Notes under the pieces: model-generated | What the model was told of the DNA's origin: nothing | Databases searched by the model: none | The model's input: the letters and a program-made list of their open reading frames with translations, nothing else | Translations under genes and position numbers: made by a program | Shown: positions 8,839-62,802 of the stretch, one piece after another | Layout: every line of letters starts with the position of its first letter | Numbering within the stretch: position 1 is the first letter of the stretch | Source: an uncultured Candidatus Saccharibacteria bacterium | GTDB taxonomy: Bacteria > Patescibacteriota > Saccharimonadia > Saccharimonadales > EFPC-124 | Direction of reading: 5' to 3' | Assembly (NCBI GenBank): GCA_965225085.1 | Contig: CBDDBE010000002.1 | Location: 6,014-70,013 of the forward strand | DNA length: 64,000 bases

Positions 8839-9282
8839 TTAGGGGCGAGGCGGCTCGTGCGTGAATGTGTGTCCGTGCTGCTTGGCGTAGGCTACGATCT
8901 TTGGTGGAATATCGGGAAGCCGTCCGGGCAGGAATTCTACCTCCGAGCTAACCACGAATGCGATACCGCAGTGTTCGCAGGCCACGTTTGTCTTAAACCT
9001 CCGTCCGCATTGCGAGCAGTAGCGCAGGATCATTGTGAGCCCGCCCACTGCGGTTGCTGCTTTCATGACGGCAGCTGCGTGGGTCTTGTAGCGGGTCAGT
9101 TGAGACAAGCGCTGGTTCATGAGCTGCGAACCCGCGCGTGCAGTGAGACCATTCAGGTCAAATATACTTCCCTGAACAAGTCCCGTGACTGTCATGACGA
9201 CCGACTGTTCGACGCTGTGAGTCTCGGCCAGTTTGGTTGGATCGACTAGCATGAACTGCGCTGCGTATGCTGGTGCCGGCAT
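8839..9282 (-). CDS. Hypothetical protein with a C-terminal CxxC...CxxC zinc ribbon
   Basis: Start MPAPAY lies behind GAGGAG. Zinc ribbon CSQCGRRFKTNVACEHCG. The N-terminal part vaguely resembles YbjQ/UPF0145 (unverified). Confidence 0.5.
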   Translation of the reverse strand: MPAPAYAAQFMLVDPTKLAETHSVEQSVVMTVTGLVQGSIFDLNGLTARAGSQLMNQRLSQLTRYKTHAAAVMKAATAVGGLTMILRYCSQCGRRFKTNVACEHCGIAFVVSSEVEFLPGRLPDIPPKIVAYAKQHGHTFTHEPPRP

Positions 9283-9392
9283 GTAGTTCTCCTCAAAAGG
9301 TCTCGATGTCAGTAGCACGTCGCCTCGGGCTTATGCCCGCATCAAATGTAGGGGCTTTCTGTGATTCGGTCAAGATCGTACTCAGATGGTGG

Positions 9393-9421
9393 TTGCACAT
9401 CCGCCTCTGTTTTGGTACAAT
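9393..9421 (+). promoter_or_regulatory. Candidate sigma70-type promoter of rpsU (TTGCAC-N17-TACAAT)
   Basis: -35 at 9393-98 and -10 at 9416-21, with the ATG at 9432. No SD lies in between. Confidence 0.35.
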
Positions 9422-9431
9422 GACCTGCAGT

Positions 9432-9650
9432 ATGATCCAAGTAACTCGTAAAGACCCACAAGAAGCCAACGAAAACCTTATTCGTCGTTTTAACCGCAAA
9501 GTCCAGCAATCCGGCGTTGTCGCTCGGGTAAAGGCTCTTCAATATTTTGAAAAGCCTATCAGCAAGACAGAGCGACGCAAGAAAGCGATTATTCGTAAGG
9601 CTCGCAAAGCGGACAAGCTCAAGCGTATTCGCCTTGGTGTGGGGCGTTAA
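9432..9650 (+). CDS. rpsU: 30S ribosomal protein S21
   Basis: MIQVTRKDPQEANENLIRRFNRKVQQSGV...ERRKKAIIRKARK. The long upstream part of ORF 9267-9650 was rejected. Confidence 0.9.
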   Translation: MIQVTRKDPQEANENLIRRFNRKVQQSGVVARVKALQYFEKPISKTERRKKAIIRKARKADKLKRIRLGVGR

Positions 9651-10096
9651 TGCTCGAAGCCAAGCTTGACGCGGATATCAAGCAAGCACTCCTCGGCGGC
9701 GACAAGCCTCGCGCCGAGGTTTTGCGTGGTCTGAAGAGCGCCTTCCTGTACGAGAAGGTCGCAAAAGGCCTGCGCGAAGTAGGCCTCGACGACGAGCAGG
9801 CTCTTGTTATTATTACGCGCGAAGCCAAAAAACGCACCGAAAGCGCCGACCTATATGCCAAGGCTGGCGCCCAAGATCGAGCCGACAAAGAGCTAAGCGA
9901 GCGAGCAGTCCTTGAGGAATATTTGCCTCAGCAACTGAGCGATGAAGAACTTGATGCCGTTGTCGGGGAAGTTGTAGCTTCTATGGGTCAGGATGCACAG
10001 CTCGGTCGCGTGATCGGCGAAGTGCGCCAGAAAGTTGGCGTCAGCGCTAACGGTGGCCGCATAGCTGCAGCGGTAAAGGCTAGACTAGGGTCCTAA
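9650..10096 (+). CDS. GatB/YqeY domain protein
   Basis: LKSAFLYEKVAKG...ITREAKKRTESADLYAKAG..DRADKELSE..LEEYLPQQLS is the typical YqeY pattern. TAATG overlap with rpsU. Confidence 0.8.
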   Translation: MLEAKLDADIKQALLGGDKPRAEVLRGLKSAFLYEKVAKGLREVGLDDEQALVIITREAKKRTESADLYAKAGAQDRADKELSERAVLEEYLPQQLSDEELDAVVGEVVASMGQDAQLGRVIGEVRQKVGVSANGGRIAAAVKARLGS

Positions 10097-10111
10097 GGGT
10101 AGGGAAACGAT

Positions 10112-14860: not shown

Positions 14861-17629
14861 ATGGCGCAGAACACTGCGGCGTTATCTCTAACGCGTCATT
14901 TTACAGAGGCGGGCGTGCACCCGTACGACATGCTTGCGTGGGAGAGCCGGGATGCGGCTATCGTCAATCCGGTCACTGGCAAGACGGCTTTCGAGCAGAA
15001 GCAAGTTGAGTTTCCGGACACATGGTCGCTAAACGCAATCAATATTGTTTCGCAGAAGTATTTCACAGGTACGCCTGGTACCGCCCAGCGCGAAAAGTCG
15101 CTAAAACAGCTAATTGACCGTGTCGCGGACACTATTACGAAGTATGGCTATGAGCAAGGTTATTTCATTGGCGAGGCCGAGGCGGATATTTTCAACCACG
15201 AACTGAAGTACATCCTTGCTACTCAGCGTGCATCATTTAACTCACCGGTATGGTTTAACATTGGGGCGCTGCAGCGTGCACAACAGGCGAGTGCGTGTTT
15301 TATCCTTGAGGTGGAGGACACGATGCAGTCCATCCTGAACTGGTACCGCGAGGAGGGCATGATCTTCAAGGGCGGTTCTGGCGCTGGCCTAAATATCAGC
15401 ACTATTCGGAGCTCGTACGAGCCGCTTAGCAGCTCGGGCGGCAAGGCTTCTGGCCCCTTAAGCTTTATGCGCGGGGCAGACAGCTCGGCCGGTGCGATCA
15501 AGAGCGGCGGTAAGACACGCCGTGCTGCCAAGATGGTTATCCTGAATGTCGATCATCCCGACATTGAGGAGTTCATCCAGTCCAAAGCGCGCGAAGAGCG
15601 CAAGGCAAAAGTGTTGGTTGAAGCAGGCTTTGATATGGGCCTGAACGGTCAGGATTCTATCTCGATTCAGTATCAGAACGCCAACAATTCCGTTCGCGTA
15701 ACCGACGACTTTATGAAGGCCGTCGAAGACGACAAAGACTGGAAGCTGGTAGGCGTGCGTGACAAGAAGGTGTACAAGACCGTCAAAGCCCGCAAGCTGT
15801 GGCGCGAAATCGCCCAGGCAGCGTGGGAATGTGCTGACCCTGGCGTGCAGTACGACACGACTATCAACGACTGGCATACAACGCCAAAGGCGGGCCGCAT
15901 CGAAGGTAGTAACCCATGTTCGGAATACATGCACCTTAATAATTCGGCTTGTAACCTGGCCAGCATCAACCTGCTGAAGTTCCTGAACGATGACGGCACA
16001 TACGACATTGAAGCCTTCAAGCACACTGTCGAGGTTATCTTCCTGGCTCAGGAAATCCTCGTCGGCTACAGCGAATACCCAACCGAAGCTATCGACAAAA
16101 ATGCCAAAGCATATCGCGAGCTCGGCCTTGGCTACGCAAACCTCGGTGCGCTTTTGATGGCCCAGGGCCTGCCATACGATTCAGCGGAAGGTCGCGCTCA
16201 GGCGGCTGCCATTACCGCGCTGATGACCGGCTATGCCTACGCCACCAGCGCCAAAATTGCCAAGCGAGTCGGGCCATTTGCCGGCTATAACAAGGATCGC
16301 GACGGCATGAACCGCGTACTGCGCAAACACCGTGATGCCATCCGCGAGATTGACGCCAGCCTCGTCAGCGAAGACCTGTTGAGCGCTGCAGCTAGTTCGT
16401 GGGACGAGGCGGTTGAGCTGGGCGAGAAGTATGGCGTGCGTAATTCGCAGGCCAGCCTGTTGGCACCAACCGGCACCATTGGGTTTATGATGGACTGCGA
16501 CACGACAGGCATCGAGCCCGATTTTGCACTCACCAAATTCAAAACATTGGTGGGCGGTGGATCGATGGTCATTGTGAACCAGACAGTGCCTCGTGCGCTC
16601 AAGACGTTGGGCTACACCAAGGCTCAGGCTGACGAGATAGTAGCGTACATCCACGACAATTCTACCGTCGTTGGTGCGCCACATCTTCGCCCCGAGCACC
16701 TCGAGGTATTTGCCTGCGCAGTCGGCGAAAATGCCATTCATTACCTTGGCCACGTCAAGATGATGGGCGCGGTCCAACCGTTCCTGAGTGGTGCTATCAG
16801 CAAGACGGTCAACATGCCCGAGAACGTAACGGTGGAAGACGTCGAACAGTTGCACCTCGACTCATGGAAGCTCGGCCTCAAGGCGGTTGCCATCTACCGC
16901 GACAACTGCAAAGCCTGGCAGCCACTCAGCGACAAGAAGTCTACCGACGACAAAAAGTCAGCCGAAGCCGTCCCTCCAACGCAGGTTGTGGTGAAGGCCA
17001 TGAAGCGCGAGCTTCCCCGTACGCGTACCAGCCGAACATTCGAGTTCCACATTGCCGACCTCAAGGGATTTGTGACCGTAGGCGAATACGAGGACGGAAC
17101 CCCAGGTGAGCTATTTGTCCGCGTCGCCAAGCAGGGCTCAACCCTGAGCGGCCTAATGGACAGCTTTGCTATCAGCGTCAGCCACGGCTTGCAGTATGGT
17201 GTGCCGCTGAAGAGCTATGTTCGTACGCTCAGCAATATGAGCTTTGCACCGTCGGGCATTACCGATGACCCAGAGATTCGCACGGCCAGCAGCCTGGTTG
17301 ATTACATCTTCCGACGATTGGCGCGGGATTACCTGAGTTTTGATGATCGATTGGAGCTCGGCCTAGCTAGCTTTGACGACCTAGAGGCCGAGACGCAGGC
17401 CAATCAGCCAAGCCTGCTTGACCAGCCAAGCGTTGCATCAAAGATAGTCGATGAAGAACCCAAGGCCAGTGCCAAGCCCAAGGTTGTAGCGACTGAAGCG
17501 AGCAAGCCCCAGAAGTACATCATCAGCGAGACCACCGCACCGCTGTGCCACGCCTGTGGCAACCAAACCCAACGGGCTGGTAGCTGCTATGTATGCAGCT
17601 CGTGCGGGGCAACCAGCGGGTGTAGCTAA
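14861..17629 (+). CDS. nrdJ: Class II (adenosylcobalamin-dependent) ribonucleotide reductase
   Basis: 922 aa. Active-site NPCSEY, the typical class II N-terminus and a C-terminal CHACG...CYVCSSCG tail. Confidence 0.9.
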   Translation: MAQNTAALSLTRHFTEAGVHPYDMLAWESRDAAIVNPVTGKTAFEQKQVEFPDTWSLNAINIVSQKYFTGTPGTAQREKSLKQLIDRVADTITKYGYEQGYFIGEAEADIFNHELKYILATQRASFNSPVWFNIGALQRAQQASACFILEVEDTMQSILNWYREEGMIFKGGSGAGLNISTIRSSYEPLSSSGGKASGPLSFMRGADSSAGAIKSGGKTRRAAKMVILNVDHPDIEEFIQSKAREERKAKVLVEAGFDMGLNGQDSISIQYQNANNSVRVTDDFMKAVEDDKDWKLVGVRDKKVYKTVKARKLWREIAQAAWECADPGVQYDTTINDWHTTPKAGRIEGSNPCSEYMHLNNSACNLASINLLKFLNDDGTYDIEAFKHTVEVIFLAQEILVGYSEYPTEAIDKNAKAYRELGLGYANLGALLMAQGLPYDSAEGRAQAAAITALMTGYAYATSAKIAKRVGPFAGYNKDRDGMNRVLRKHRDAIREIDASLVSEDLLSAAASSWDEAVELGEKYGVRNSQASLLAPTGTIGFMMDCDTTGIEPDFALTKFKTLVGGGSMVIVNQTVPRALKTLGYTKAQADEIVAYIHDNSTVVGAPHLRPEHLEVFACAVGENAIHYLGHVKMMGAVQPFLSGAISKTVNMPENVTVEDVEQLHLDSWKLGLKAVAIYRDNCKAWQPLSDKKSTDDKKSAEAVPPTQVVVKAMKRELPRTRTSRTFEFHIADLKGFVTVGEYEDGTPGELFVRVAKQGSTLSGLMDSFAISVSHGLQYGVPLKSYVRTLSNMSFAPSGITDDPEIRTASSLVDYIFRRLARDYLSFDDRLELGLASFDDLEAETQANQPSLLDQPSVASKIVDEEPKASAKPKVVATEASKPQKYIISETTAPLCHACGNQTQRAGSCYVCSSCGATSGCS

Positions 17630-17650
17630 AAGCCCAGCCCCCTAAAAGCA

Positions 17651-17683
17651 AAAAACCTGCCCGCATTCCGCAAGCAGGTTTTT
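17651..17683. terminator. Bidirectional hairpin terminator between nrdJ and the convergent 92-aa gene
   Basis: AAAAACCTGC...GCAGGTTTTT, with A/T runs on both sides. Confidence 0.6.
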
Positions 17684-17711
17684 GCTTACAGCGGGATGGA
17701 GCAGGAATAAG

Positions 17712-17990
17712 CTACCGGATGACAAAGGTTGCGACGTACGGTTGTTCGTCGACGTCGACGGGTGGGTATGCGTAGCCGAATTGTACTCGAACGCTGCCGT
17801 CGATGTTGCACGCCTCTGGATCCTGTGCCAGCCCCATCGCTTGGCCCTCTCTGAGGCACGGCGTAGCTATAGTTGGGCCGAACTCCGTTCCGAGTTCATT
17901 GAAGCCCCAGAAAACCACAATCCATTTGTCGGGGTAGCTCTCGGGCCGTGGAGGGTGTTGGACGGCGCGTCCGAAGGTGACGGGTCTCAC
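17712..17990 (-). CDS. Hypothetical 92-aa protein
   Basis: GTG start behind AAGGAG. Predicted beta-rich. No family recognised. Sits alone on the opposite strand from its neighbours. Confidence 0.45.
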   Translation of the reverse strand: MRPVTFGRAVQHPPRPESYPDKWIVVFWGFNELGTEFGPTIATPCLREGQAMGLAQDPEACNIDGSVRVQFGYAYPPVDVDEQPYVATFVIR

Positions 17991-18078
17991 GCTGACTCCT
18001 TATCTCGATGCAGTCTGGATTGAAGCTGATTATACTGTTAGTTCTGTATCTGTCAACTGTACGGTATACTAGAGGGTA

Positions 18079-18342
18079 ATGAAAGCAATGCTCCTATACC
18101 GACCCAACTCCGAGCACGAGCGCATGGCGGAGGAATACGTTCGCGATTTTGCCAGGCATACGGGCAAGGAGCTGCCGACGGTTAATGTCGATACACCGGA
18201 CGGGTCCTACTTGGCGCAGGTATACGACATCGTGAAATTTCCGAGCATTGTCGCGACTGACGACGAAGGGAAGCTGCTGCAGTCGTGGAGCGATGATATG
18301 CTGCCACGGTTTGACGAAGTGAGCTTTTACGTCCAGGGTTAA
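18079..18342 (+). CDS. Small thioredoxin-fold-like protein without cysteines
   Basis: 87 aa with a KFPSIVATDDEGKLL pattern like Trx beta3-beta4. Contains no Cys. Fold call is tentative. Confidence 0.45.
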   Translation: MKAMLLYRPNSEHERMAEEYVRDFARHTGKELPTVNVDTPDGSYLAQVYDIVKFPSIVATDDEGKLLQSWSDDMLPRFDEVSFYVQG

Positions 18343-18345
18343 CGC

Positions 18346-18900
18346 ATGATTCAGACCGAGCTCGAACTGACATATCTGGCCCGCACGATACCGGATGGGC
18401 TGGCGGACTGCCCGTCAAAGTTGATCGTGGATGTGTATTATCCGGCTGCTGAATTACATCCACGCCTGCGTATTCGCCAACGTGGTGATCAATACGAAAT
18501 TACCAAAAAGGCCTTGGCGCACGGCACCGATTCATCGCACTTGATAGAGCACACTATTGAGCTGACTCGGGAAGAGTTCGAAGCGCTGACTCAGACTCCG
18601 GGCAGACGCGTGGCAAAACGTCGTTACCTATACGATTATCGTGGTCGCACTGCCGAGATTGATGTTTTCGAGGGTGACCTGGCGGGGCTGGTCGAAGTTG
18701 ATTTCGAATTCACTGACCGCGACGCGCAGTTGGCCTTTCAGATGCCGGATTTCTGCCTGGCCGACGTAACCCAAGAGGCCTTTGCGGCTGGCGGAAAGCT
18801 GGCAGGTAAGGCCTACGCCGACATCCAACAGGAGCTCGACCGATACGGATACACGCCATTATATTTGAAAGGGGAGCGTGATGACGCTCGGCATATTTAG
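18346..18900 (+). CDS. CYTH-domain protein (triphosphate tunnel family)
   Basis: N-terminal ELELTYL (ExExK-like), RIRQRGDQYEITKK and the acidic strand VEVDFEF. Confidence 0.6.
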   Translation: MIQTELELTYLARTIPDGLADCPSKLIVDVYYPAAELHPRLRIRQRGDQYEITKKALAHGTDSSHLIEHTIELTREEFEALTQTPGRRVAKRRYLYDYRGRTAEIDVFEGDLAGLVEVDFEFTDRDAQLAFQMPDFCLADVTQEAFAAGGKLAGKAYADIQQELDRYGYTPLYLKGERDDARHI

Positions 18901-19498
18901 CCGCGATAAAATCCGCCACGAGCATTGGATTTTTGGTGTGGTGGCAATTTTTGCGGTAGTTGGACTGGTTTGCTCGCTGGTGCTGTCGGTTGAGAAGCTG
19001 CGGCTGCTCGAGAACCCTCACGCTGTATTGCCGTGCTCGCTCAATGCTTTTTTGAACTGTGCGACTGTTATGAATACACCTGAGGCGTCACTTCTTGGCT
19101 TTCCGAACTCGTTTATTGGCATGATTGCGTATGCAGCGCTGCTAACTCTTGCCGTGGCGGGCCTGTTTGGTGCTCGTTTTCCTCGCAGTTTTATGGCGTT
19201 GGTGCAGATAGGGGTGACAGTCGAAATCATCTTTGCGTATTGGCTATTTTTCGATAGTGTCTATGCTGTTCGCGTCCTTTGCCCACTGTGTCTGTTGGTA
19301 ACATTCAGTAGCACCATGATTTTTGCGTCGATCACACGATATAACATCCTAGAGCAAAACCTCTACCTGGCACCCAGGATGCAAAATGCCGCGCGCAAGT
19401 GGATGGGCGGCCAGTACGACAAAGCGCTTGTCGCTGGGTGGATCGTGCTCATGATCGGGCTGGTCCTGGTAAAATTCCCAGGGATATTGAGCTCGTAA
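18878..19498 (+). CDS. Vitamin K epoxide reductase (VKOR) family membrane protein
   Basis: Loop cysteines C..SLNAFLNC and the CPLC active-site motif inside a TM helix. 4-5 TM segments. Confidence 0.75.
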   Translation: MMTLGIFSRDKIRHEHWIFGVVAIFAVVGLVCSLVLSVEKLRLLENPHAVLPCSLNAFLNCATVMNTPEASLLGFPNSFIGMIAYAALLTLAVAGLFGARFPRSFMALVQIGVTVEIIFAYWLFFDSVYAVRVLCPLCLLVTFSSTMIFASITRYNILEQNLYLAPRMQNAARKWMGGQYDKALVAGWIVLMIGLVLVKFPGILSS

Positions 19499-19599
19499 TG
19501 CGGTGTCCAGCCCGCTGGGTGGTTGCATTTTAACAGATAAGCCGTTACAATTGAGGCCGTACATGCATCTTGGAGTTCCAGGTAAGTGGCTATCAACCA

Positions 19600-19781
19600 C
19601 GAAGCAGCGGGAAGAAATCGCCTAAGCGACGGTAGAACCCGACGGACGAGCCCGTTAGACTCACCCCCCCAAAACAAGCGCAACATGAGTCACCTCATTT
19701 TGAAGCTGGATGGTACCGCCCGAAGCAAATCCAACACTCGGGTTCCAGCATCAATAGATTTAGAGGTGATTTTTATTTTTA
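19600..19781 (+). promoter_or_regulatory. T-box leader (tRNA-Ile sensing) upstream of ileS
   Basis: GCUGGAUGGUACCGCCCG (19705-22) matches the T-box core. Helices GCUGGA/UCCAGC and GCCCGA/UCGGGU flank a 7-nt UGGUACC bulge. Candidate AUC specifier at 19617-19. U-run at 19770-80. Confidence 0.6.
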
Positions 19782-19808
19782 ACGAGCCAGAAAGGACGCG
19801 CAAACAAC

Positions 19809-22670: not shown

Positions 22671-22695
22671 TTTCTACGAAAAGTAAAACCCCGCC

Positions 22696-22737
22696 GGGTG
22701 CACCACACCCCTCGAAACAAGGAGGGGAGGTGCACCC
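22696..22737. terminator. Strong hairpin between ileS and a convergent small ORF
   Basis: GGGTGCACC(22696-704)/GGTGCACCC(22729-37) with inner CCCCTC/GAGGGG. GGGGTTTT follows on the minus strand. Confidence 0.55.
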
Positions 22738-22760
22738 ATGCGGGCGGCTAGCCATTGTGG

Positions 22761-22841
22761 TCATAGGGTGGTGAGGACGTAGAAGATGACGAGGAGCAAG
22801 ACGACCGCAGCTACTGCGGTAAATATTTCTTCCGTGTTCAC
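22761..22841 (-). CDS. Candidate 26-aa hydrophobic micro-protein (MNTEEIFTAVAAVVLLLVIFYVLTTL)
   Basis: GTG start 7 nt after AAAGGA. Single TM helix. Followed by the hairpin at 22696-22737. Below the ORF-track length cutoff. Confidence 0.3.
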   Translation of the reverse strand: MNTEEIFTAVAAVVLLLVIFYVLTTL

Positions 22842-22939
22842 AGTACGATCCTTTCGGACAGGGAATGGCGCGGCTATCTGTAGTTATAGTACCAATTTGT
22901 TGTTTTGTCTAATATATCTAGCATATAGATACACTATCA

Positions 22940-42790: not shown

Positions 42791-42840
42791 GGGTTCGGAC
42801 TCGCCCTTGCGCTACAAAGCGCAGGGCGAGTCGTACCCGA
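42791..42840 (-). terminator. Long GC-rich hairpin after the minus-strand membrane gene
   Basis: GACTCGCCCT(T)GCGC/GCGCAGGGCGAGTC with outer GGGT/ACCC. No U-run. Confidence 0.45.
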
Positions 42841-43206: not shown

Positions 43207-43334
43207 CAGAACTCCAGGTTGTCGGGTACGCGGCACAAGGCTGTGCCGACTTATACTATATTAACACATAATTAATATAAAGTCAATAATGCTACTAGTT
43301 TAGGACGCGCGAATAGGGTATACTATATCAGATT

Positions 43335-44864
43335 ATGCAGTGGCTTAACGACATCGTAGAGTTGGCTATGCGCCAGCATCCCGAAGGCGAGATTATCGTT
43401 AGTTCTGGCGTGTCGCCCTCAGGAAAGTATCACCTGGGGACGCTTCGGGAGATTTTAACCGCCGAAGTGATTATGCGTGAACTGCAGCGCCGTGGTCGCA
43501 TCGCGCGGCATATCCATGTTGTTGATGACCTCGATCCATTTCGGAAGGTGCCGGCTGGGCTACCTGATGACTATGCGCAGTATCTGGGGTCGCCGCTGTG
43601 CGATGTGCCTGCGCCCGATGGCAGCAATCGTAGCTACGCCGATTATTTCCTGGACGATATGCTCGGTGCGGCCAAGAAGTTACGTCTGAGTATGGAAGTG
43701 GTGCGTTCACACCAAAATTATCGTGATGGGTTTTATGTACCGGCTATCGAACAGGCTTTGGCGCACATCGACGATATCAGGCGAATTTTGAGCGAGGTAT
43801 CGGGCCGGGCGCTGGACGATCAGTGGTCGCCCATTCAGGTTGTAGAGGATGGCAAGTTAAAAAATCGTCAGTTCAAGTCGATCGATACGCAGGCAAAGAC
43901 GCTCGTGTACGCCGATGCCGACGGCAATGATCGCGAAGCGAGCTATGCGCACGGTGACGTCAAGCTGAACTGGCGTATTGACTGGCCGGCGCGGTGGCAG
44001 GCGCTCGGCGTAAATGTTGAGCCATTTGGCCGGGACCATGCCACTAAAGGCGGCAGCTACGATACGGGCATGCTATTGGTACGGCAGATTTTTGATGCTG
44101 AGCCACCCATTCCCGTCCCGTATGATTTTATAAATCGCACTGGCGAGACCAAAAAGATGAGCAAAAGCGCCGGAAACACCATTACGGCAGCGGAGTTGCT
44201 GGACATGCTACCGCCAGAAATCGTGTGGTATTTCATCTTGCGCGCCGCGCCGAGCAAGCTGCTATTCTTCGACGAGGGCGATATATTTATGCGACTTGTC
44301 GATAGCTTTGCGGAGCTACTGGCTCGGCCCGACAAAACTGATTCTGAACGCCAACTGATCGAACTTTGCACTCAGGATGTTGAGCCGACGGTCAGCAACA
44401 TTCCATTTACGCATTTGGTTGCCAGTTATCAGGCGTCACTCAAGGACGCCGACCAGACCGTAGAGGTAATTAAGCGGACAGAGCATGCCGCAACAGCCGA
44501 GCGGGATGCGGTCATCATTACGCGGGAGCTCAAGTTTATCGACAATTGGCTGGTCAGCCGAGCGCCAGAGGATGTGAAGTTTGAGCTAGCCGCAGATGTG
44601 AGACCGGATGATTTTAGCGCAGACCAACGACATTTTCTGCAGCGATTGGGCGAGAAGGCAGCCACCGCCCCCGAGGATGCCGACGGCCAGTGGTTTCACA
44701 ATGCTATGTACGAGCTGAAGGACGAGCTAGGGCTCGCGCCAAAGGATATGTTTAGCACTCTGTACCAAGCATTGATCGGCAGGACCAGCGGTCCGCGTGC
44801 CGGATGGTTTCTGAGTATCTTGCCTCGCGATTGGCTAATTGCACGCCTGCAACTTACAAAGTAA
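43335..44864 (+). CDS. lysK: Lysyl-tRNA synthetase, class I
   Basis: Class I architecture: SPSGKYHLGTLRE (HIGH-type) and KMSKS. About 509 aa. Confidence 0.9.
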   Translation: MQWLNDIVELAMRQHPEGEIIVSSGVSPSGKYHLGTLREILTAEVIMRELQRRGRIARHIHVVDDLDPFRKVPAGLPDDYAQYLGSPLCDVPAPDGSNRSYADYFLDDMLGAAKKLRLSMEVVRSHQNYRDGFYVPAIEQALAHIDDIRRILSEVSGRALDDQWSPIQVVEDGKLKNRQFKSIDTQAKTLVYADADGNDREASYAHGDVKLNWRIDWPARWQALGVNVEPFGRDHATKGGSYDTGMLLVRQIFDAEPPIPVPYDFINRTGETKKMSKSAGNTITAAELLDMLPPEIVWYFILRAAPSKLLFFDEGDIFMRLVDSFAELLARPDKTDSERQLIELCTQDVEPTVSNIPFTHLVASYQASLKDADQTVEVIKRTEHAATAERDAVIITRELKFIDNWLVSRAPEDVKFELAADVRPDDFSADQRHFLQRLGEKAATAPEDADGQWFHNAMYELKDELGLAPKDMFSTLYQALIGRTSGPRAGWFLSILPRDWLIARLQLTK

Positions 44865-49872: not shown

Positions 49873-49899
49873 GAGAACGCCCCTAGCCCGGGCGTTCTC
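49873..49899. terminator. Hairpin between convergent secA and the GC-rich 153-aa gene
   Basis: GAGAACGCCC(49873-82)/GGGCGTTCTC(49890-99). Confidence 0.55.
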
Positions 49900-49949
49900 T
49901 TGTATCTGCAGAGAAGTGTGCCCAGGTAGGGGCTTGTCGTAGCGCGTGG

Positions 49950-50411
49950 CTACCTGTGCCACTCGCCGGTCAGGTTCTTGTCGAACCAACCGATGATCAG
50001 GCCGGCCAGCTCGCTGCTTGGGACGGCCACGACCTCCACGTTCTGGAAGTCGCAGGTGTTGTTGCAGGCCGTCACGCATCGGGGGCAGATCGGCCGGCGA
50101 CTGGTCGGGCTCGGTTGCTCGGAGTTGGTCAACGTCCAGACGCGCTCCGGCGTTCGTCCCTTGCCCTTGACGACCCTGAACGCGCGCACGATCATCCACA
50201 AGTGCTCGGACGTGTCGTTGACGTCGACGCAGTCGTAGCTGACGTACAGGGTGACACCGTCGCCGGCCATCGCGGCCAGTGGGGCTGCGTCGGACGGGGT
50301 CATCTTGTATGCGGCGATACTGTTCAGCTGGTCGTTCAGGTCGTACAGGAGCGTCGAGATCTCGACGAGTCGGATGGGCTGCGGGGTCGTGTCCGAGGGT
50401 GCGTTGCTCAT
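49950..50411 (-). CDS. GC-rich hypothetical protein (153 aa) with a Cys cluster CPRCVTACNNTC
   Basis: ATG 50411 behind GGAGGA. A spot count on line 50101 gives 41/60 G+C. No family recognised. Confidence 0.55.
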   Translation of the reverse strand: MSNAPSDTTPQPIRLVEISTLLYDLNDQLNSIAAYKMTPSDAAPLAAMAGDGVTLYVSYDCVDVNDTSEHLWMIVRAFRVVKGKGRTPERVWTLTNSEQPSPTSRRPICPRCVTACNNTCDFQNVEVVAVPSSELAGLIIGWFDKNLTGEWHR

Positions 50412-50565
50412 GGTTCCTCCAGGGAAGCTTGGGAGCGAATGCATTTACTATATCATAAAAATATAGTTTATGCAATATACAAAAATATGAAACGTGGCAG
50501 TTATATGTTCCGCCAGGGAGTGATATGATAGTTGGAAGAAGATTAACCTGGATACTTTTTGCCCT

Positions 50566-51852
50566 ATGAAACATTCCGTCGAAGAAGTTGTTCTTCAAAA
50601 TGGCAGTCGCGGCCTGTTGATCCACGTGCCAAATGCCACTGTTATGAGCTTTGATTTTGAGTTTCGCGCTGGGTATGAATATGCGCGTAGCGAGGACATT
50701 TACGAAACGCCGCACATCATGGAGCACATGGTGCTGGGTGCGAACGAGCAATTTCCGAATGCCAGGTTGTACAATGCCGAGCTCGAGAAAAATGGCGCAT
50801 ACAGCAACGCCAGCACTAGCACGGTTAGCCTAAAGTACGTCGCGGACTGCGCAGATTTTGAATGGGATCGCGTGCTCGGGCTCCTCCGTTTGGCCATAAC
50901 TAAGCCGCTATTCCTGCAGACCGAGTTCAAAGCCGAATACGGCAACGTGAAGGAAGAATTGACCGGGTATCTCAACAACCATGGCCGAGTGCTGTGGCAG
51001 CGCATAGGTCGCGAAAGTGGCGAGCGATTCCTGAGCGATGAGGCCCGTATGAAGACCATGCCAAATGTGAAGTTGCGTGATATCAAGGAGCACTACGAGC
51101 GAACTCACACCTCTGATAATCTGCGATTTGTGTTGGCCGGCAACATCAACACCGAGCGACGCGATCGAGTAGTTGCATCACTGGAGAAGTGGGAGCTCTC
51201 GCGTGGCGAGCGGTTTGCCATGAAGCGCGAAGAGCTAGTGGGCGCACCCGAGCCTATACACATTCTGCGCAAGGATGTCGAGAATTTGATTTTTGGTATG
51301 GCTATTGAGGCAAACTGGCGTTTTAGCGATGCCGAGCACGATGCTATGAAGGCGCTCAACCACATATTGACTGGAACGCTGCACTCGTTGATCTTGGGGC
51401 GAGCCCGCGAGCAAGGGCTAGTGTATGGTATGTGGTCGGATTTTCTGGTCAGTGACAGCACCAGCGAGTGGGATTTTGGTGGGCAGGTGAGCCTGAAGAA
51501 CGCACCAAAGCTCTTCGAGATCATAACCGAAGAAGTCGCGCGCGTGCTTAGCGGCGACATCAAGGCTAAAGACCTGGAGGCTTCGAAGCAGTTCGCGCTC
51601 GGTAAGCACCAGATGGGTTGCCAGACGGTTGGGTCAATTGCACATTGGTATGGCGACCGCTATTTCTTTGACGGCTACATCGATGACTATGCCAAGAGGC
51701 CAAAAGCGATTGAGGCCATCACCAAAGAAACCATCATTGGCGCAGCCAATAACCTGGTGAATGGCAAGCGTTGGGCATTTGGCGCGCTGGGGCAGTGCAA
51801 GCCGAGCGATTTGGGTGCGCTTCACAACCAGCTGGGCGGCCTATTTGTATGA
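50566..51852 (+). CDS. M16 (pitrilysin) family zinc peptidase
   Basis: Inverted zinc motif HIMEH with a downstream E. Length consistent with two domains. Confidence 0.8.
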   Translation: MKHSVEEVVLQNGSRGLLIHVPNATVMSFDFEFRAGYEYARSEDIYETPHIMEHMVLGANEQFPNARLYNAELEKNGAYSNASTSTVSLKYVADCADFEWDRVLGLLRLAITKPLFLQTEFKAEYGNVKEELTGYLNNHGRVLWQRIGRESGERFLSDEARMKTMPNVKLRDIKEHYERTHTSDNLRFVLAGNINTERRDRVVASLEKWELSRGERFAMKREELVGAPEPIHILRKDVENLIFGMAIEANWRFSDAEHDAMKALNHILTGTLHSLILGRAREQGLVYGMWSDFLVSDSTSEWDFGGQVSLKNAPKLFEIITEEVARVLSGDIKAKDLEASKQFALGKHQMGCQTVGSIAHWYGDRYFFDGYIDDYAKRPKAIEAITKETIIGAANNLVNGKRWAFGALGQCKPSDLGALHNQLGGLFV

Positions 51853-53159
51853 GCGAAAAGGTAGCGATTGTCGGCTATGGCGATGAAGGCCAAGCGGCCT
51901 ATCGCTATTTTGCGGCTCGGGGCGCAGACATTACGATTTTCTATAAACGGCGGCCGCTAGACTTGCCCGACGACGTCAAAGTTATTTTGGACGCGCACGT
52001 GACCGAGCTGCAGGGTTACGACGTGGTTGTGCGATCGCCGGCAGTCAGACCGGATAGTTTGCACACCGAGGGCCGAGTCACCTCTGTTACCAAGGAGTTC
52101 CTGTCTGTTTTTGGGACCGACAGGGTGATCGGCGTAACGGGCAGCAAGGGCAAAGGAACGACGTCGACGCTTATATACGAGATGCTCAGGGCTGCCGGTA
52201 TCCGCACACATCTGGCTGGCAACATTGGCGTGGCGGCACTGGACGTGCTGACGCAGCTTGAAGGCGGTGATGATTATGTAGTGCTCGAGCTGTCGAGCTT
52301 TCAGCTTTGGGATCTCGAGATGAGCCCGCATATCGCCGTACTGCTCATGATCGAGCCTGACCATATGGATGTGCATGCAACCATGGATGAATACGTTAAG
52401 GCAAAATCACAGATTGCAGCCCACCAAAAGGCAGATGACGTGTTAGTTTATTTACCGTCAAATCCCTTAACAGTTCGCGCTGCCACAGTATCAAAGGGCC
52501 ATAAAATACCGTACAGCGAAGCGCCGGGCGCACATATTGAGGATGATTTTATCGTGATTGACGGGCAGCGAATTATCGAAGTAAATCAGTTGGGGCTGAT
52601 TGGGCGGCATAACCTGGACAATGCTTGCGCTGCCGTAACCGCTACATGGCAGATAACGCAGGATATTCCAGCCATGCAACGCGCGCTTAGGGATTTCAAG
52701 GGCTTGCCGCATCGATTGCAGTTAGTGGGTGAGGTGAGTGGGGTGAGGTTTTATGATGACAGCATTGCCACAACGCCCGGCTCTGCCATTGCTGCACTTT
52801 GGGCGCTGGAGCAACCCAAAGTCATGATCCTGGGCGGTTCTGATAAGGGTGCTGACTTCACTGAGCTTGCCGGTGAAGTGAAGCGGCAGGGGGATGGCGT
52901 ACGCAAAGTCGTGCTAGTTGGCGATATGGCCGCCAAGATCCAAACTGCGCTTCATGTTGCTGGGGTAAACGACAAAGATTTGCTCTTACCCGGCAAGCCA
53001 AGCATGGACGAGATCGTTCGTCGGGCCATGGGCTATGTACAGGAAGGGGATGCGGTGGTGCTTTCTCCAGCCTGCGCTAGCTATGATATGTTCGCTAGCT
53101 ACCAGGACCGCGGAAACCAATTTATCGCCGCGATGAAGCGCCTGCCAGCACATGAGTAA
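51849..53159 (+). CDS. murD: UDP-N-acetylmuramoyl-L-alanine--D-glutamate ligase
   Basis: GVTGSKGKGTTS P-loop and the Mur ligase middle and C-terminal domains. ATGA overlap with the M16 gene. Confidence 0.9.
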   Translation: MSEKVAIVGYGDEGQAAYRYFAARGADITIFYKRRPLDLPDDVKVILDAHVTELQGYDVVVRSPAVRPDSLHTEGRVTSVTKEFLSVFGTDRVIGVTGSKGKGTTSTLIYEMLRAAGIRTHLAGNIGVAALDVLTQLEGGDDYVVLELSSFQLWDLEMSPHIAVLLMIEPDHMDVHATMDEYVKAKSQIAAHQKADDVLVYLPSNPLTVRAATVSKGHKIPYSEAPGAHIEDDFIVIDGQRIIEVNQLGLIGRHNLDNACAAVTATWQITQDIPAMQRALRDFKGLPHRLQLVGEVSGVRFYDDSIATTPGSAIAALWALEQPKVMILGGSDKGADFTELAGEVKRQGDGVRKVVLVGDMAAKIQTALHVAGVNDKDLLLPGKPSMDEIVRRAMGYVQEGDAVVLSPACASYDMFASYQDRGNQFIAAMKRLPAHE

Positions 53160-53781
53160 TCTGGGCATTTATGGCCCGAATTGGATTCAGTACGGTAACG
53201 GACTGACCAACAGCTTGCGAAATGGCATTCTCTAGGTATAAGTAGTGCGTGCAGGCCAGCGAAATAACGTCGATGCCGTCGTGCGCGAGCCGTTCGGCCA
53301 GGCCCACAGCTTCGCTTTCGTCGAAATCATGCGTTTCAATCTGGCCAGCCCAGGTAGAGCAGTCCGGTTCGGCAACGTGCAGATCGCCAGCCCATGTGCG
53401 CTTAAGCAATTTGTACCGACGGCTTCGTAGGGTGGCAGGCGTGGCCAGAACGGCAATTCGGCCATTTGTTGTCAGTGCGGCGGCAGTTTTGACCATTGGT
53501 TCAAAGCCAATAAATGGTAGATGCGGGTGCTTATCGCGCAGACTGCGTATGGCGACGGTCGTTGCGGTGTTGCACGCAATCACCACGACGTCGCAAGCAG
53601 AAACGAGCGGTAGGACCGCATCATGAGTAAGCCGCGTGATATCATCATCTGACCGCGACCCATACGGCGCGTTTAGGAGGTCATCGACAATCATAAATGT
53701 GTCCTGAGGGCGGAGTAAACGCAGCTGTTCTGCGACATAGCGCCCGCCAAAGCCTGTGTCGAATATGCCGATATGTGCCAT
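53122..53781 (-). CDS. murI: Glutamate racemase
   Basis: IGIFDTGFGG, VIACNTAT and LACTHY. Start trimmed to MAHIGIF. The 3' end overlaps the murD 3' end by 38 nt. Confidence 0.85.
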   Translation of the reverse strand: MAHIGIFDTGFGGRYVAEQLRLLRPQDTFMIVDDLLNAPYGSRSDDDITRLTHDAVLPLVSACDVVVIACNTATTVAIRSLRDKHPHLPFIGFEPMVKTAAALTTNGRIAVLATPATLRSRRYKLLKRTWAGDLHVAEPDCSTWAGQIETHDFDESEAVGLAERLAHDGIDVISLACTHYLYLENAISQAVGQSVTVLNPIRAINAQITHVLAGASSRR

Positions 53782-54921: not shown

Positions 54922-54950
54922 GTCGGTTGTTGTGTAAAACTAAAAGTTGA

Positions 54951-54988
54951 AGCCCCCGTTCACACCTTTTTAGGAGGCAACGGGGGCT
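54951..54988. terminator. Hairpin between prfB and the convergent RHH remnant
   Basis: AGCCCCCGTT(54951-60)/AACGGGGGCT(54979-88). Confidence 0.5.
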
Positions 54989-55042
54989 GCTATCGGCTGA
55001 CTCTAGCTGGAGGGGGTAAGAGTGTCTGTTCGGCGGTCGAGA

Positions 55043-55272
55043 TCAGACGAAGAATACTCGCACAAACTCACCGTCGGGTTGCCTGAAGTACACGGTGCCA
55101 CCGGATGCTTGAAGCTCAAGGACTTCATCGTAGAAATATACGGCATTGTTGATGGCGGTGGTCTGGTTGATGCCTCTGCGCCTTATCCTCGCTAAGGCCT
55201 TTGTGTCCTTTGGGACAGGTTGAGGCTGATCTTTTTCAGCCCGGAGGGCGCTGCATCATCGGGTTGACTCAT
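55043..55272 (-). pseudogene. Frameshifted ribbon-helix-helix (CopG/antitoxin-like) gene
   Basis: ATG 55272...KKISLNLSQRTQR then an in-frame TAG. The -1 frame continues ALARIRRRGINQTTAINNAVYFYDEVLELQASGGTVYFRQPDGEFVRVFFV to the TGA at 55043-45. The span is 230 nt, not a multiple of 3. Confidence 0.5.
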
Positions 55273-55452
55273 CGATTTGCCGCTCCAAACGGTACTCATG
55301 AGCTCTGTAGCTGGCAAAGGCCTAACGACTACAGTGATTGCCAAAGTCGGACGATACTATTTTACGATTATATTTGTTATAAGTCAATATTCTGGTGTTG
55401 TATCGCTATCGATCGTTGGGGTAATGCGCGTACCATATGCTACAATTGAAAG

Positions 55453-60553: not shown

Positions 60554-60583
60554 AAAAACTCCGCGAGAATGTGCGGAGTTTTT
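60554..60583. terminator. Bidirectional rho-independent terminator
   Basis: AAAAACTCCGC-GAGAATGT-GCGGAGTTTTT between the convergent receiver gene and rpmA. Confidence 0.75.
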
Positions 60584-60601
60584 GGGTTTGCTAGGCTGTA
60601 T

Positions 60602-60910
60602 TTATTTTTTCTTGGCGACAGCTTGTGCTGGTGCTTCGTCGATAATGATCACCTGAGTGCGCATAGTTGTTTTGCCGGTGAAGCGCTTGATCTTCACGTG
60701 CTTGAAGGCGACGATGCCGTCGCGAGCTGCGTGGATGGTAAAGTTACGAGCCATAAAGGTGCCTGGACCAGGAATTTTGGTGCGGCCTACCTGACGAACT
60801 AATACTTCGCCTTCGTTGACTTTTTGGCCACCAAAACGCTTAACGCCAAGGCGCTGGCCGGGTGAATCGTGGACGTTTTTGGCGGTACCGCCTGCTTTAA
60901 CGTGTGACAT
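60602..60910 (-). CDS. rpmA: 50S ribosomal protein L27
   Basis: MSHVKAGGTAKNVHDSPGQRLGVKRFGGQKV. Confidence 0.95.
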   Translation of the reverse strand: MSHVKAGGTAKNVHDSPGQRLGVKRFGGQKVNEGEVLVRQVGRTKIPGPGTFMARNFTIHAARDGIVAFKHVKIKRFTGKTTMRTQVIIIDEAPAQAVAKKK

Positions 60911-60913
60911 AAA

Positions 60914-62089
60914 TTAGTGTGACTCCTTGGCTGTTAAAACCAGTAATTCGCGGGCAACAATTTGATCCTCGCGGTGATATATGAGGTCTTGCGCGCGTAT
61001 GTGTTTAAAACTTACTCGATTATAGCCGATTTTCTCGAGGTCGTCAATAACATCCAGATGACGATAGCCTTGGCCGGTAAACCAAGCTGGCACGGCGACA
61101 CAAAGGCGTGTGCCTGGGGCTATCTGAGGGCGGAGGTTTTGCAAAAAAGCCTTGGCAATATCGTTGCATTCGCTGGCTATGCGGGCCAGATGTACTGGGG
61201 CGGGTAGGGTATGCAACGGTTTGCCCAAGTACCCCTCACACACGACGCTATCGATTGGCTGTTGCCACGTGGCGGTCGTGGCATCGAGGGTATCCAGCGA
61301 GAGGGCAAAATCAATGCCGTATGTATCCTTCAGCCACTGGATGTTCTGGCCAGTGTAATCGACCATTCGTCCACTTATGTCTGTTCCGTATACGTCGCAG
61401 CCCATCAGCGCGGCTTCTTGTAGCACGACGCCGGTGCCACAAAACGGGTCGAGCACGCGCTGGCCGGGTCGGACTTGTGCCAGGTTGAGCATGGTCTGCG
61501 CAAGTTTGGGCGGTAGCATTCCCACGAACGCATCGCGGCGGGGGCGAGTAAAGTCACGTCGGGCGTAATCGTCGATGTCTTGGACGTGCACGGTGCGGGC
61601 GATGTGCGTACGCGCGCCATCGCGGATGAAGAGAAGCTCGCACCCGAGGTCGCTCGTGAGCTGGTTGTGCAGGATCTGAGCGCTGTTAAGTTCGAGTGCA
61701 CTGTTGGGTACAACGCGAGCAGATCGTCCATTAGCACGAAGAGCCTTCTTGAGTTCAAGTCCGCTACGTTGGAGCGATTTGAGACTGACGTTTAGACCGT
61801 AGGTGCTGAGGCCAAGCTTTATTTTGCCCTCGGTCGGCATGTCGGCAAAGTGACGGGGTAGAAGCGTCCGGCAGGCGTCCAGAATCTGCGACCAATCGGT
61901 CCTGTCCAAGGTTGCTAACGGGGTGCCTATCTTGATGACGCTGCCCAGCAAGTGGGCCGGGACATCCTGAACCTCGACGTCAACCTGCGCGGCAATGTCG
62001 CCCAGTGGCAGGATGCGTTCAGCGCCAAAACGGCTTTCGAGCTCGGCCAGGCCGAATGCAGGCTGGCGGCCTAAAATACAGATAATCAT
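60914..62089 (-). CDS. SAM-dependent methyltransferase (RNA/UPF0020-like; target unknown)
   Basis: Motif I VLDPFCGTGVVLQEAALMG..VYGTDIS. Start trimmed to MIICILGRQP. Confidence 0.65.
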   Translation of the reverse strand: MIICILGRQPAFGLAELESRFGAERILPLGDIAAQVDVEVQDVPAHLLGSVIKIGTPLATLDRTDWSQILDACRTLLPRHFADMPTEGKIKLGLSTYGLNVSLKSLQRSGLELKKALRANGRSARVVPNSALELNSAQILHNQLTSDLGCELLFIRDGARTHIARTVHVQDIDDYARRDFTRPRRDAFVGMLPPKLAQTMLNLAQVRPGQRVLDPFCGTGVVLQEAALMGCDVYGTDISGRMVDYTGQNIQWLKDTYGIDFALSLDTLDATTATWQQPIDSVVCEGYLGKPLHTLPAPVHLARIASECNDIAKAFLQNLRPQIAPGTRLCVAVPAWFTGQGYRHLDVIDDLEKIGYNRVSFKHIRAQDLIYHREDQIVARELLVLTAKESH

Positions 62090-62163
62090 ATAATCTTCAG
62101 TATAGCGTTTTTGTGGCTCTCCCGCCATGCGCCTGGGGGTGGGGCGGGCGGGAGAGCCACTGT

Positions 62164-62802
62164 TCATGTTTCCATGCCAGGGATGCTTGGTTCCTTGACG
62201 TGCTTCGCTTGGGCGATTTCGTATATCGTTTGGCCTGCCGCGTTGGGCTCGACGCGGATGAGAGTATTCCTTGTCGGAGCCCAGCCGGGATCATCGGCTA
62301 GCGTGACATACCAGCCAAGGTTGCCGGTCTCCATCATCCATTCCGCGGTTGCGAGCCCAACGCCTTTTCCGATCCGGTTGAACAAGGTCACGAGCTTGTA
62401 GCACGGCCTCCGCGGGTTTTCAATCTCCAGCCTCAGGCGGCTGGGCCCCCAGTACCACACATCGCTTGTACGCGCGATTTGCTCATTGGCATAGGCGCCA
62501 CTCACGAGCAAGTTCTCGCCGAATGTCAGGCCGAGCTCGGCAAGCCGGTCCGGGGCGGTTCCGAAGGCTTCAGCCCACCGAATGTACTGGGTGATGGGCA
62601 GGACATAAACGGCCTTCTTGGGGCCGCCATGTACCCTGAGGTCCGCTTGCGCGTCACCTCGTAGACCTGCCTGGGTAACCCAAATGCGGCTGTCTGACAC
62701 GGGTCGCTTCAGGAAGCAGCTCATTATTTCTGCGCCACTATTCCTGTGACCGATGACCTCAGGCGCGCCGAGAACGCGTGTATCAAGGAGTGAAATGTCC
62801 AT
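62164..62802 (-). CDS. MOSC-domain protein (YiiM-like)
   Basis: GDAQADLRVHGGPKKAVYV and the conserved-Cys segment NPRRPCYKL. A spot count on line 62401 gives 41/60 G+C. SD is AGAGGAAA. Confidence 0.8.
   Translation of the reverse strand: MDISLLDTRVLGAPEVIGHRNSGAEIMSCFLKRPVSDSRIWVTQAGLRGDAQADLRVHGGPKKAVYVLPITQYIRWAEAFGTAPDRLAELGLTFGENLLVSGAYANEQIARTSDVWYWGPSRLRLEIENPRRPCYKLVTLFNRIGKGVGLATAEWMMETGNLGWYVTLADDPGWAPTRNTLIRVEPNAAGQTIYEIAQAKHVKEPSIPGMET

Follow-up and report, generated by a model that had tools for sequence, protein, structure and literature searches.

The window analysed here, a stretch of 64,000 nucleotides on contig CBDDBE010000002.1 (positions 6,014 to 70,013, forward strand) of the uncultured Candidatus Saccharibacteria assembly GCA_965225085.1, contains seven loci at which short GC-rich genes, each preceded by a Shine-Dalgarno (SD) sequence, are wedged between housekeeping operons. 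We numbered the loci I1 to I7 along the window and call the two members of a paralogue pair I4a and I4b, so that eight genes occupy seven loci; the NCBI gene calls match six of the eight proposed proteins. Our preferred interpretation, held with moderate confidence, is that they are replacement-type flexible loci of a single gene (in one case two genes) in fixed intergenic slots between core operons. The initial annotation had read the same architecture as repeated piecemeal gene acquisition into intergenic gaps. A distinct accessory class in variable slots was borne out, but recent strain-specific import was not: same-slot, same-strand homologues were found in sister genomes for five of the seven loci (I1, I2, I4, I6 and I7), which therefore predate the strain. 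The synteny comparison thus revealed, at these five loci, the conservation of position across the lineage that the initial annotation had itself regarded as incompatible with its proposal.

The window has a GC content of 53.9% with a steady positive GC skew and is a segment of a soil-type Saccharimonadales chromosome from a reduced genome, as judged from related complete-looking contigs of 1.09–1.18 Mb. Pfam searches identified long runs of housekeeping genes: fmt-def-priA, recJ, rpsU, adk, map, ftsA, ftsZ, nrdR and the class II ribonucleotide reductase (RNR) gene; ileS, parAB, signal peptidases, prmC, prfA, rpmE, rpsB-tsf, frr-uppS-rseP and proS; greA, class I lysS, serS, a hibernation factor, secA, an M16 peptidase and a Mur ligase; and prfB, ftsEX, CHAP hydrolases, ctpA, rpmA and a gene for an LPG-synthase-like membrane protein. 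Neither tRNA genes nor Rfam families were detected in the window. Scanning its ribosome recycling factor (RRF) protein against one genome per GTDB species yielded 80 loci, of which 76 had titles naming Saccharibacteria/TM7, Saccharimonadales or Nanosynbacter. The nearest loci belonged to uncultured Saccharimonadales metagenome-assembled genomes (MAGs) with 82–85% RRF identity, and the databases searched held no relative above 90% identity, even for RRF. Sister DNA was retrieved around RRF (L001–L003), FtsZ (L081, L082, L086 and L087) and release factor 2 (L083–L085 and L088), and 88 loci in total were fetched for homologue searches. Gene order was kept nearly perfectly between the window and L001–L003 and L081–L088, and the sister core proteins were 77–88% identical to those of the window (72% in L087).

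Against this stable background, the contents of the slots diverged sharply. Conserved slots were recovered in two to four sisters each, namely between recJ and rpsU, between the RNR gene and a conserved 87-aa gene, between tsf and frr, between secA and the M16 peptidase gene, and between the methyltransferase and LPG-synthase-like genes. The slot homologues are only 24–51% identical, as opposed to 67–96% for the flanking core proteins and 77–88% for the core at large. Even genomes with 86–88% identical cores, such as L083 and L085 (86%), differ in what their slots hold.

I1 encodes a 147-aa zinc-ribbon protein (CxxC-x9-CxxC) on the minus strand (8839–9282) between recJ and rpsU. Its SD (GAGGAG) lies at 9289–9294, and a 12-bp perfect GC-rich hairpin at 8805–8834, with no U-run on either side, is common to I1 and the convergent recJ. 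Minus-strand homologues occupy the same slot in L082 (146 aa, 51% identity, GC content at third codon positions (GC3) 0.82), L081 (147 aa, 31–33%, GC3 0.88) and L086 (146 aa, 24%). The zinc-ribbon Cys residues and both termini are invariant in the alignment; all zinc-ribbon matches in Pfam were sub-threshold, and a scan of the alignment against metagenome contigs gave no match. The window protein is nearest to that of L082 (51%), yet the window is the core outgroup to L081, L082 and L086 (85% versus 88% core identity), and L082 and L086, which have the closest cores (88.6% identity), share only 29% identity at I1. This conflict between the I1 pairwise identities and the core suggests an exchange of deeply diverged alleles between lineages. 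Here and below, conflict or congruence with the core tree is judged from pairwise identities only.

I2 encodes a 92-aa protein on the minus strand (17712–17990) between the RNR gene and the 87-aa gene, with an SD (AAGGAG) at 17996–18001. It shares with the RNR gene a bidirectional intrinsic terminator made of an A-run, a hairpin and a T-run (17645–17690). Minus-strand homologues of 84–91 aa and 26–30% identity were found in the same slot, two copies in L081 and one in L082. The best of them, L081_10177 (88 aa), is 30% identical to I2 (E = 4e-10; GC3 0.84) and has a paralogue, L081_9813; the L082 copy is L082_15402 (91 aa, 26%, GC3 0.86).

The slot between tsf and frr holds the I4 pair on the minus strand. 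I4b (36949–37551) encodes a 200-aa SMODS-associated NUDIX (Sa_NUDIX) protein (Pfam PF18167, E = 9e-17), with an SD (AAGGGAG) at 37560–37566 and a terminator hairpin at 36899–36943. I4a (36262–36801) encodes a divergent Sa_NUDIX-like paralogue of 179 aa: within the open reading frame (ORF) 36262–36867, the plausible start is the GTG at 36801, five nucleotides behind GGAGG (36807–36811), and the gene has its own promoter (TTGCAA/GATAAT, approximately 36838–36866). A hairpin at 36188–36219 is common to I4a and the convergent tsf. The two proteins were 27% identical over 73 aa in BLASTP (E = 8e-7), and the very divergent I4a had no detectable homologue in the 88 loci. Same-slot homologues of I4b, 33–38% identical and with GC3 of 0.70–0.84, are present in L001, L002 and L003. 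The slot carries one Sa_NUDIX gene in L001 (9283–9864), a pair in L002 (8486–9888) and one in L003 (1006–1647), where a small Cys-rich ORF took the place of the frr-proximal copy. Throughout the subclade, a standalone Sa_NUDIX locus, ancestrally a tandem pair, keeps its place between tsf and frr.

PADLOC models for RTasNUDIX (4e-13) and for 2TM effectors of cyclic-oligonucleotide-based antiphage signalling systems (CBASS; ~1e-11) matched I4b. No CD-NTase/SMODS or reverse transcriptase (RT) gene was found near the pair in the window or in L001–L003; the pair is bounded by its own promoters and terminators, and its neighbours are tsf and frr. Membership of I4b in a CBASS or defence-associated reverse transcriptase (DRT) system was rejected because the partner gene was absent nearby.

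I6 encodes a 153-aa Cys-cluster protein on the minus strand (49950–50411) between secA and the M16 peptidase gene, with an SD (GGAGGA) at 50415–50420 and a hairpin at approximately 49879–49933 that it shares with secA. A word-indexed search of 5.8 billion proteins returned only I6 itself. Among the sister genomes, its same-slot homologue is L088_5275 (156 aa, 29% identity over 96 aa, E = 4e-9, GC3 0.83), which is in turn 35% identical to L085_4532 (160 aa). A second small family is common to L083 and L088 in the same slot.

I7 encodes a 212-aa YiiM-like MOSC protein on the minus strand (62164–62802; Pfam MOSC, E = 1e-14), whose domain score of 54.6 bits exceeds the Pfam gathering cut-off of 22.7. 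Its SD, GAGAGGAAA, is located at 62805–62813, and a 14-bp perfect hairpin (62113–62160) stands between it and the methyltransferase gene, whose predicted leaderless start is at 62089. Against the NCBIfam 6-hydroxyaminopurine reductase model, I7 scored 65.4 bits, under the 294-bit cut-off. Same-slot homologues were found in L083 (198 aa, 35%, GC3 0.86) and L088 (209 aa, 33%, GC3 0.82), in both cases upstream of the same methyltransferase-rpmA unit, with the adjoining methyltransferase 67% identical. In an exhaustive HMMER search, the best non-self representative was 44% identical to I7, and the sole named protein among the ten nearest matches came from Saccharibacteria. The L083 protein has nearer relatives elsewhere (66% and 57%) than the MOSC protein of the window. 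The neighbouring methyltransferase (60914–62089; 391 aa, UPF0020/N6_N4 MTase, with a mad2-like PADLOC match at 1.5e-18) is co-oriented with rpmA and conserved in L083 and L088. Its predicted start is the leaderless one at 62089 and not the longer ORF start at 62167, which overlaps the MOSC gene.

The two remaining loci, I3 and I5, encode orphan membrane proteins and are the only ones absent from the same slot in close relatives. I3 (33968–34666, plus strand) encodes a 232-aa Trp-rich membrane protein in the divergent gap between rpmE and rpsB, with an SD (AGAGGTG) at 33957–33963, a canonical terminator at approximately 34676–34725 and a GC3 z-score of 3.5. It matched no family and had no homologue in the 88 loci or in a scan of metagenome contigs. 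L002 has no gene in its slot, and L001 has an unrelated ORF of 396 aa there. I5 (42856–43206, minus strand), located between greA and class I lysS, encodes a multi-pass membrane protein of 116 aa and has an SD (TGGAG) at 43212–43216, a TATAGT promoter about 45 nt upstream and a hairpin at approximately 42791–42838. No I5 homologue was detected in the 88 loci or in viral contigs. Its slot is empty in L003, holds a TerC gene (GC3 0.85) in L001, and in L002 contains two unrelated minus-strand membrane ORFs (GC3 0.92 and ~0.87), which showed no detectable similarity to each other, nor did the 168-aa ORF of L002 to I5. From these comparisons, I3 and I5 appear to be specific to this lineage, the sisters having nothing or something else in these slots. 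Downstream of the greA slot, the window (43335–44864), L002 and L003 carry a class I lysyl-tRNA synthetase (LysRS), and L001 carries at the comparable position (17615–19135) a class II Asp/Lys/Asn-type synthetase with a LysRS-like N-terminus. This difference in lysS appears to be a non-orthologous displacement between sister genomes.

The eight genes also form a distinct class in composition. Codon-position composition was computed for them and for the 59 other curated genes of the window, whose GC3 averaged 0.592 (standard deviation 0.049, range 0.45–0.69), with the lowest values in ribosomal-protein genes (0.45–0.54). The GC3 of all eight flagged genes lies above this native mean (I1 0.64, I2 0.68, I3 0.76, I4a 0.72, I4b 0.64, I5 0.92, I6 0.91 and I7 0.69), and the initially suggested GC3 comparison separated the groups (Mann-Whitney p = 3e-7). 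Four of the eight exceed every native gene, with I5 and I6 at z = 6.5–6.8, and GC content at second codon positions (GC2) is higher too (0.45–0.48 versus ~0.39). Composition atypical for the host genome, one of the features expected of recently transferred islets, is therefore a property of the flagged genes. The p-values in this comparison and those for the signals described below are inflated by selection, as the loci had been picked for these very features; an independent criterion, poor conservation against a sister genome, picked the same eight genes plus three others (lysS, the racemase gene and FBP_C) that are replaced yet compositionally native. The spot GC counts per 60 nt of the initial annotation (43, 41, 41, 36/37 and 35), its coordinates and its SD strings were reproduced exactly, and its caution that only the strongest cases stand out by GC alone proved justified, since I1, I4b, I2 and I7 are no individual outliers on GC3.

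The most GC-rich part of the window (62–68% GC) is its first 1700 nt, where two plus-strand ORFs, 12–680 (GC3 0.75) and 693–1532 (GC3 0.82), had no match in Pfam, PHROGs or NCBIfam. They probably belong to the same GC3-rich accessory class, as plus-strand genes outside the span of the seven loci.

Translation signals divide the window along the same line. A canonical SD was found 5–8 nt ahead of the start in all eight flagged genes, in agreement with the motifs initially reported (GAGGAG, AAGGAG, AGAGGTG, GGAGG, AAGGGAG, TGGAG, GGAGGA and AGAGGAAA), as opposed to 3 of 37 native operon-first genes under a strict definition and 9 of 37 under a relaxed one (Fisher p = 8e-7 and 1e-4, respectively). 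Native SD sites occur mainly at operon-internal genes (adk, map, parB, rseP-like, tsf and rpmA). At operon-first core genes, a -10 box typically sits 6–10 nt ahead of the start codon: a TANNNT box 3–12 nt before the start was present in 17 of 37 operon-first natives, compared with 5.6% of control ATGs (p = 3e-12). The earlier impression that many native genes look leaderless is thus well founded, and core operons are predicted to start mostly with leaderless mRNAs. This placement, with the -10 box next to the start and no SD, is kept in the relatives, whose rpsU, methyltransferase, prfB and lysS genes look leaderless; their slot genes are likewise SD-led, with a -10 box 30–40 nt upstream.

Orientation and gene ends complete the picture. 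Seven of the eight flagged genes lie on the minus strand, compared with 12 of 59 natives (p = 4e-4), and both neighbours are read from the opposite strand at five of the seven loci, as had been noted for most of them. All eight genes are followed by a strong GC-rich hairpin, four of these hairpins being common to a convergent core operon. As first described, most hairpins have no U-run, which occurs only at I2 and I3 and weakly at I4a. A shared attC-like or repetitive extragenic palindrome-like element was rejected because the hairpins are unrelated in sequence.

The high GC3 of the class persists in its homologues. Relatives of I1, I2, I4b and I7 have GC3 of 0.70–0.88, often 0.82–0.88, above the window copies, and homologue pairs that are only 29–66% identical to each other both remain within this range. 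Since pairs with saturated synonymous sites keep such values, high GC3 looks like a maintained property of the gene class and not like the dwindling leftover of a recent transfer. In six of seven related genomes, accessory genes (defined there as database gene calls without a counterpart in the window core) likewise exceed core genes in GC3 (e.g., 0.78 versus 0.59 and 0.70 versus 0.61).

We considered whether the slot genes might be purely vertical, relaxed-selection genes drifting to a GC-rich mutational or gene-conversion equilibrium that selection denies to the core, an account we regard as unlikely while acknowledging what speaks for it. Besides the excess of accessory over core GC3, accessory GC3 roughly follows genome GC (0.47 at 44.5% GC, 0.70–0.78 at 54–56% GC), ribosomal-protein genes sit at the low end, GC2 is raised as well, and the MOSC identities are congruent with the core. 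The minus-strand islets also have a strand-appropriate GC3 skew of -0.16, intermediate in comparison with -0.33 for minus-strand natives, which is compatible with long residence but no proof of it. However, conservation and GC3 are uncorrelated among 40 natives (rho 0.09, p = 0.57, identity to L001), with the poorly conserved prmC (49%) and Mur ligase (54%) genes at normal GC3, and evolutionary rate was accordingly rejected as the cause. The priA and recJ genes, for which weak expression is presumed, have GC3 of 0.61–0.63. Neutral drift is unlikely given that intergenic DNA has 47% GC, and the flanking core genes show no GC3 gradient toward the slots, which makes biased gene conversion or another regional effect improbable. 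Lagging-strand position was rejected because minus-strand natives have GC3 of 0.47–0.63. Vertical drift would also conflict with the I1 pattern and would leave the SD-led state of this class alone unexplained.

The alternative closest to the initial annotation, which we consider quite improbable as a general account, is that each islet is a separate, unameliorated recent transfer from a GC-rich donor, with actinobacterial hosts as one candidate source. It draws on a GC3 of up to 0.92 against a core of 0.59 together with raised GC2, on translation signals that look foreign (SD-led against a leaderless core), on the absence of I3 and I5 from sister slots, on the variation of slots across the order, and on the lower-GC relatives L084 and L087, which do not have these families. 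The sister homologues at five of the seven loci refute it in its general form, and their GC3 is as high or higher despite 50–75% protein divergence, contrary to what amelioration predicts. No foreign donor emerged, the large protein database searches covering I6 and I7: no homologue was identified outside Saccharibacteria or metagenomes, and the one named near match of the MOSC protein is itself from Saccharibacteria. Signatures of mobility were likewise missing: there was no tRNA, mobility gene, shared or flanking repeat or hairpin family, or PHROG match, every neighbour is a housekeeping gene, and the viral contigs, scanned for I5 and I6 only, gave no relatives. A published comparison also describes TM7x as having no strong transfer signal from its Actinomyces host (McLean et al. 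2020, PMC7427843).

A third possibility, that the genes are artefacts of GC-rich spacer DNA, either false ORFs or chimeras made during assembly, is extremely improbable: six of the eight have no family match, single-sequence AlphaFold2 models of I1 and I6 were very poor (predicted local distance difference test scores of 36 and 40) and GC-rich DNA does give rise to long chance ORFs, but five families (I1, I2, I4, I6 and I7, for which the artefact was rejected outright) have homologues with conserved Cys and other protein motifs in independent NCBI, JGI, ENA and Logan assemblies, codon periodicity is strong and unlike that of chance ORFs (GC content 0.5, 0.46 and 0.9 at the first, second and third positions, respectively), SD, promoter and terminator stand in register at each locus, and two Pfam domains are present.

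The slots themselves seem to be older than their contents. The tsf/frr gap ranges from 10 bp to 4 kb over the 80 Saccharibacteria loci, and that between rpmE and rpsB spans 175 bp to 4.7 kb. In about 60 more distant Saccharibacteria (within L004–L080; Nanosynbacter and others), the tsf/frr gap holds a minus-strand gene that, from Walker-type sequence motifs, we read as a putative recF, often accompanied by a coiled-coil protein gene and a gene for a 111-aa protein. This points to the solo antisense gene at that position as an old arrangement in which the occupant has changed. Lower-GC relatives differ further: in L087 (44.5% GC), the recJ slot contains a plus-strand gene and the RNR slot is empty, and in L084 (48% GC), a plus-strand NT5C gene lies next to secA. 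Taken together, these patterns suggest that the slots are old points of variability and that the present occupants date to the subclade with 52–56% GC.

In the 531-nt spacer between prfB and ftsE (54922–55452), no ORF looked convincing and an Rfam search gave nothing even at E = 1. L085 and L088 carry a minus-strand gene of 130–133 aa at this position, of which no remnant is detectable in the window. A search of the window for decayed remnants of the accessory genes of its relatives found none. Two further spacers, 19499–19808 (310 nt, upstream of ileS) and 22671–22939 (269 nt), are unusually long for a compact genome and had no Rfam family at the gathering threshold. In L083 (6281–8913), L084 (7342–9977), L085 (6901–9548) and L088 (7180–9806), the Mur ligase gene is followed by a plus-strand gene for a MurL epimerase (446–449 aa). 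In the window (51849–53781), MurL is missing and a minus-strand, leaderless Asp/Glu racemase gene (53122–53781) is found instead; the Mur ligase is 54% identical to that of L083, the second-lowest value among the compared core genes. It looks as if the MurD2-MurL route to D-glutamate was swapped for a MurI-MurD route in the window.

In the replacement-type flexible loci that we favour, the pattern would be common to the 52–56% GC subclade of soil-type Saccharimonadales, and the ancestor that the window genome shares with its sisters would already have carried five of the seven loci. Each locus would be a self-contained, leadered transcription unit with a sigma-70-like -10 box approximately 30–45 nt upstream, a 5' untranslated region (UTR) with a canonical SD, and a GC-rich hairpin past the stop codon that is often shared with a convergent operon. 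Since that ancestor, the loci would have diverged very fast and been duplicated or lost, and in at least the I1 family, deeply diverged alleles would have been swapped between lineages. Opposite-strand placement may insulate the slot genes from read-through of the core operons, and the extreme divergence together with the one Sa_NUDIX domain would fit conflict or host-interaction roles under diversifying selection.

Several observations weigh against this interpretation. I3, I5 and I4a, for which no homologue was found in relatives, may be recent acquisitions. Some of the homologies are thin: the I2 match in L082 is weak (E = 1e-5), and that between I6 and L085 is marginal (E = 0.004). The three-taxon identity pattern of I7 fits plain vertical descent. 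The case for a conflict role consists of the divergence rate and one Sa_NUDIX domain with neither a CD-NTase nor an RT partner nearby. The roles are predicted only, and six of the eight proteins match no family; the orphan proteins returned nothing from PHROGs, NCBIfam, PADLOC or a PDB sequence search. The comparison covers just three to five sister genomes per slot, every one a MAG or metagenome contig, and no mechanism that would keep GC3 at 0.8–0.9 in resident genes was found.

Two features appear most unusual: the persistence of GC3 at 0.8–0.9, and the predicted near-restriction of leadered, SD-led initiation to the accessory genes of a genome that otherwise looks leaderless. A bolder and rather doubtful extension would be a two-tier genome, in which a leaderless, moderate-GC core coexists with a leadered, SD-dependent, fast-evolving class in antisense slots, kept at GC3 0.8–0.9 by a sustained process and serving as a toolkit for conflict or host interaction. 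One candidate for that process is the repeated import or swapping of deeply diverged alleles from a pool of GC-rich partners, perhaps tied to life with an actinobacterial host; another is class-specific selection on codon content coupled to a separate mode of translation initiation. Saccharibacteria live as obligate epibionts, their genomes are very small, and the function of most of their lineage-specific genes is unknown. If the flexible-locus interpretation is correct, it offers a simple rule for spotting the fast-evolving accessory genes of this clade: an antisense single gene lying between core operons, with an SD, a 5' UTR and high GC3. Genes found in this way would be the obvious ones to consider for a part in host interaction or defence. 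Atypical GC3 should not be taken as dating a gene as recent in such genomes, since the signature is still present in positional homologues at 24–51% identity.

Our findings are consistent with the G1 Saccharibacteria comparison, which reports very high synteny with single-gene gains and losses, and with the absence of a strong signal of transfer from the Actinomyces host in TM7x (PMC7427843). Strong gene-order conservation with differences limited to individual genes is common to both, whereas that report does not appear to describe a dichotomy between core and inserted genes in composition or translation signals (PMC7427843). The clade of the window is a higher-GC environmental lineage.

For the two recognizable domains, the closest known counterparts differ in context. 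I4b resembles CBASS 2TM effectors and DRT-associated NUDIX proteins in its matches to PF18167, RTasNUDIX and the 2TM-effector models, but the I4 locus is a standalone tandem pair with no transmembrane segment and no CD-NTase/SMODS or RT nearby, at a fixed position between tsf and frr. I7 is similar to YiiM-type MOSC proteins (6-hydroxyaminopurine reductase) in domain, length and architecture but differs in score (65 versus 294 bits), and its nearest representative is only 40–44% identical.

Replacement-type flexible islands are known from the hypervariable regions of SAR11 and Prochlorococcus and from O-antigen and pilin loci, and they are usually AT-richer than their surroundings. The slots resemble them in their fixed positions, in conserved core brackets whose contents differ or diverge at 86–88% core identity, and in a family, at least I1, whose pairwise identities seem to disagree with the core. 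They differ in comprising one or two genes (0.3–1.3 kb) and not multi-gene blocks, and in being GC-richer than the core. In the amelioration framework of Lawrence and Ochman, horizontally acquired islets are recognised by atypical composition. The slot genes share with such islets their atypical GC3 and codon usage, sharp boundaries and distinct translation signals, but they are mostly conserved in position, retain high GC3 past saturating divergence, and the searches found no donor (for I6 and I7) and no mobility gene, tRNA or flanking repeat.

Finally, mixed initiation is known from Actinobacteria, Deinococcus and crenarchaeal operons, in which leaderless initiation at the first gene goes with SD-led initiation at the internal ones. 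The window is predicted to follow the same scheme, with leaderless operon-first core genes and SD sites at internal genes, but here leadered, SD-led first genes are nearly exclusive to the accessory class (8 of 8, as opposed to 3–9 of 37 natives).

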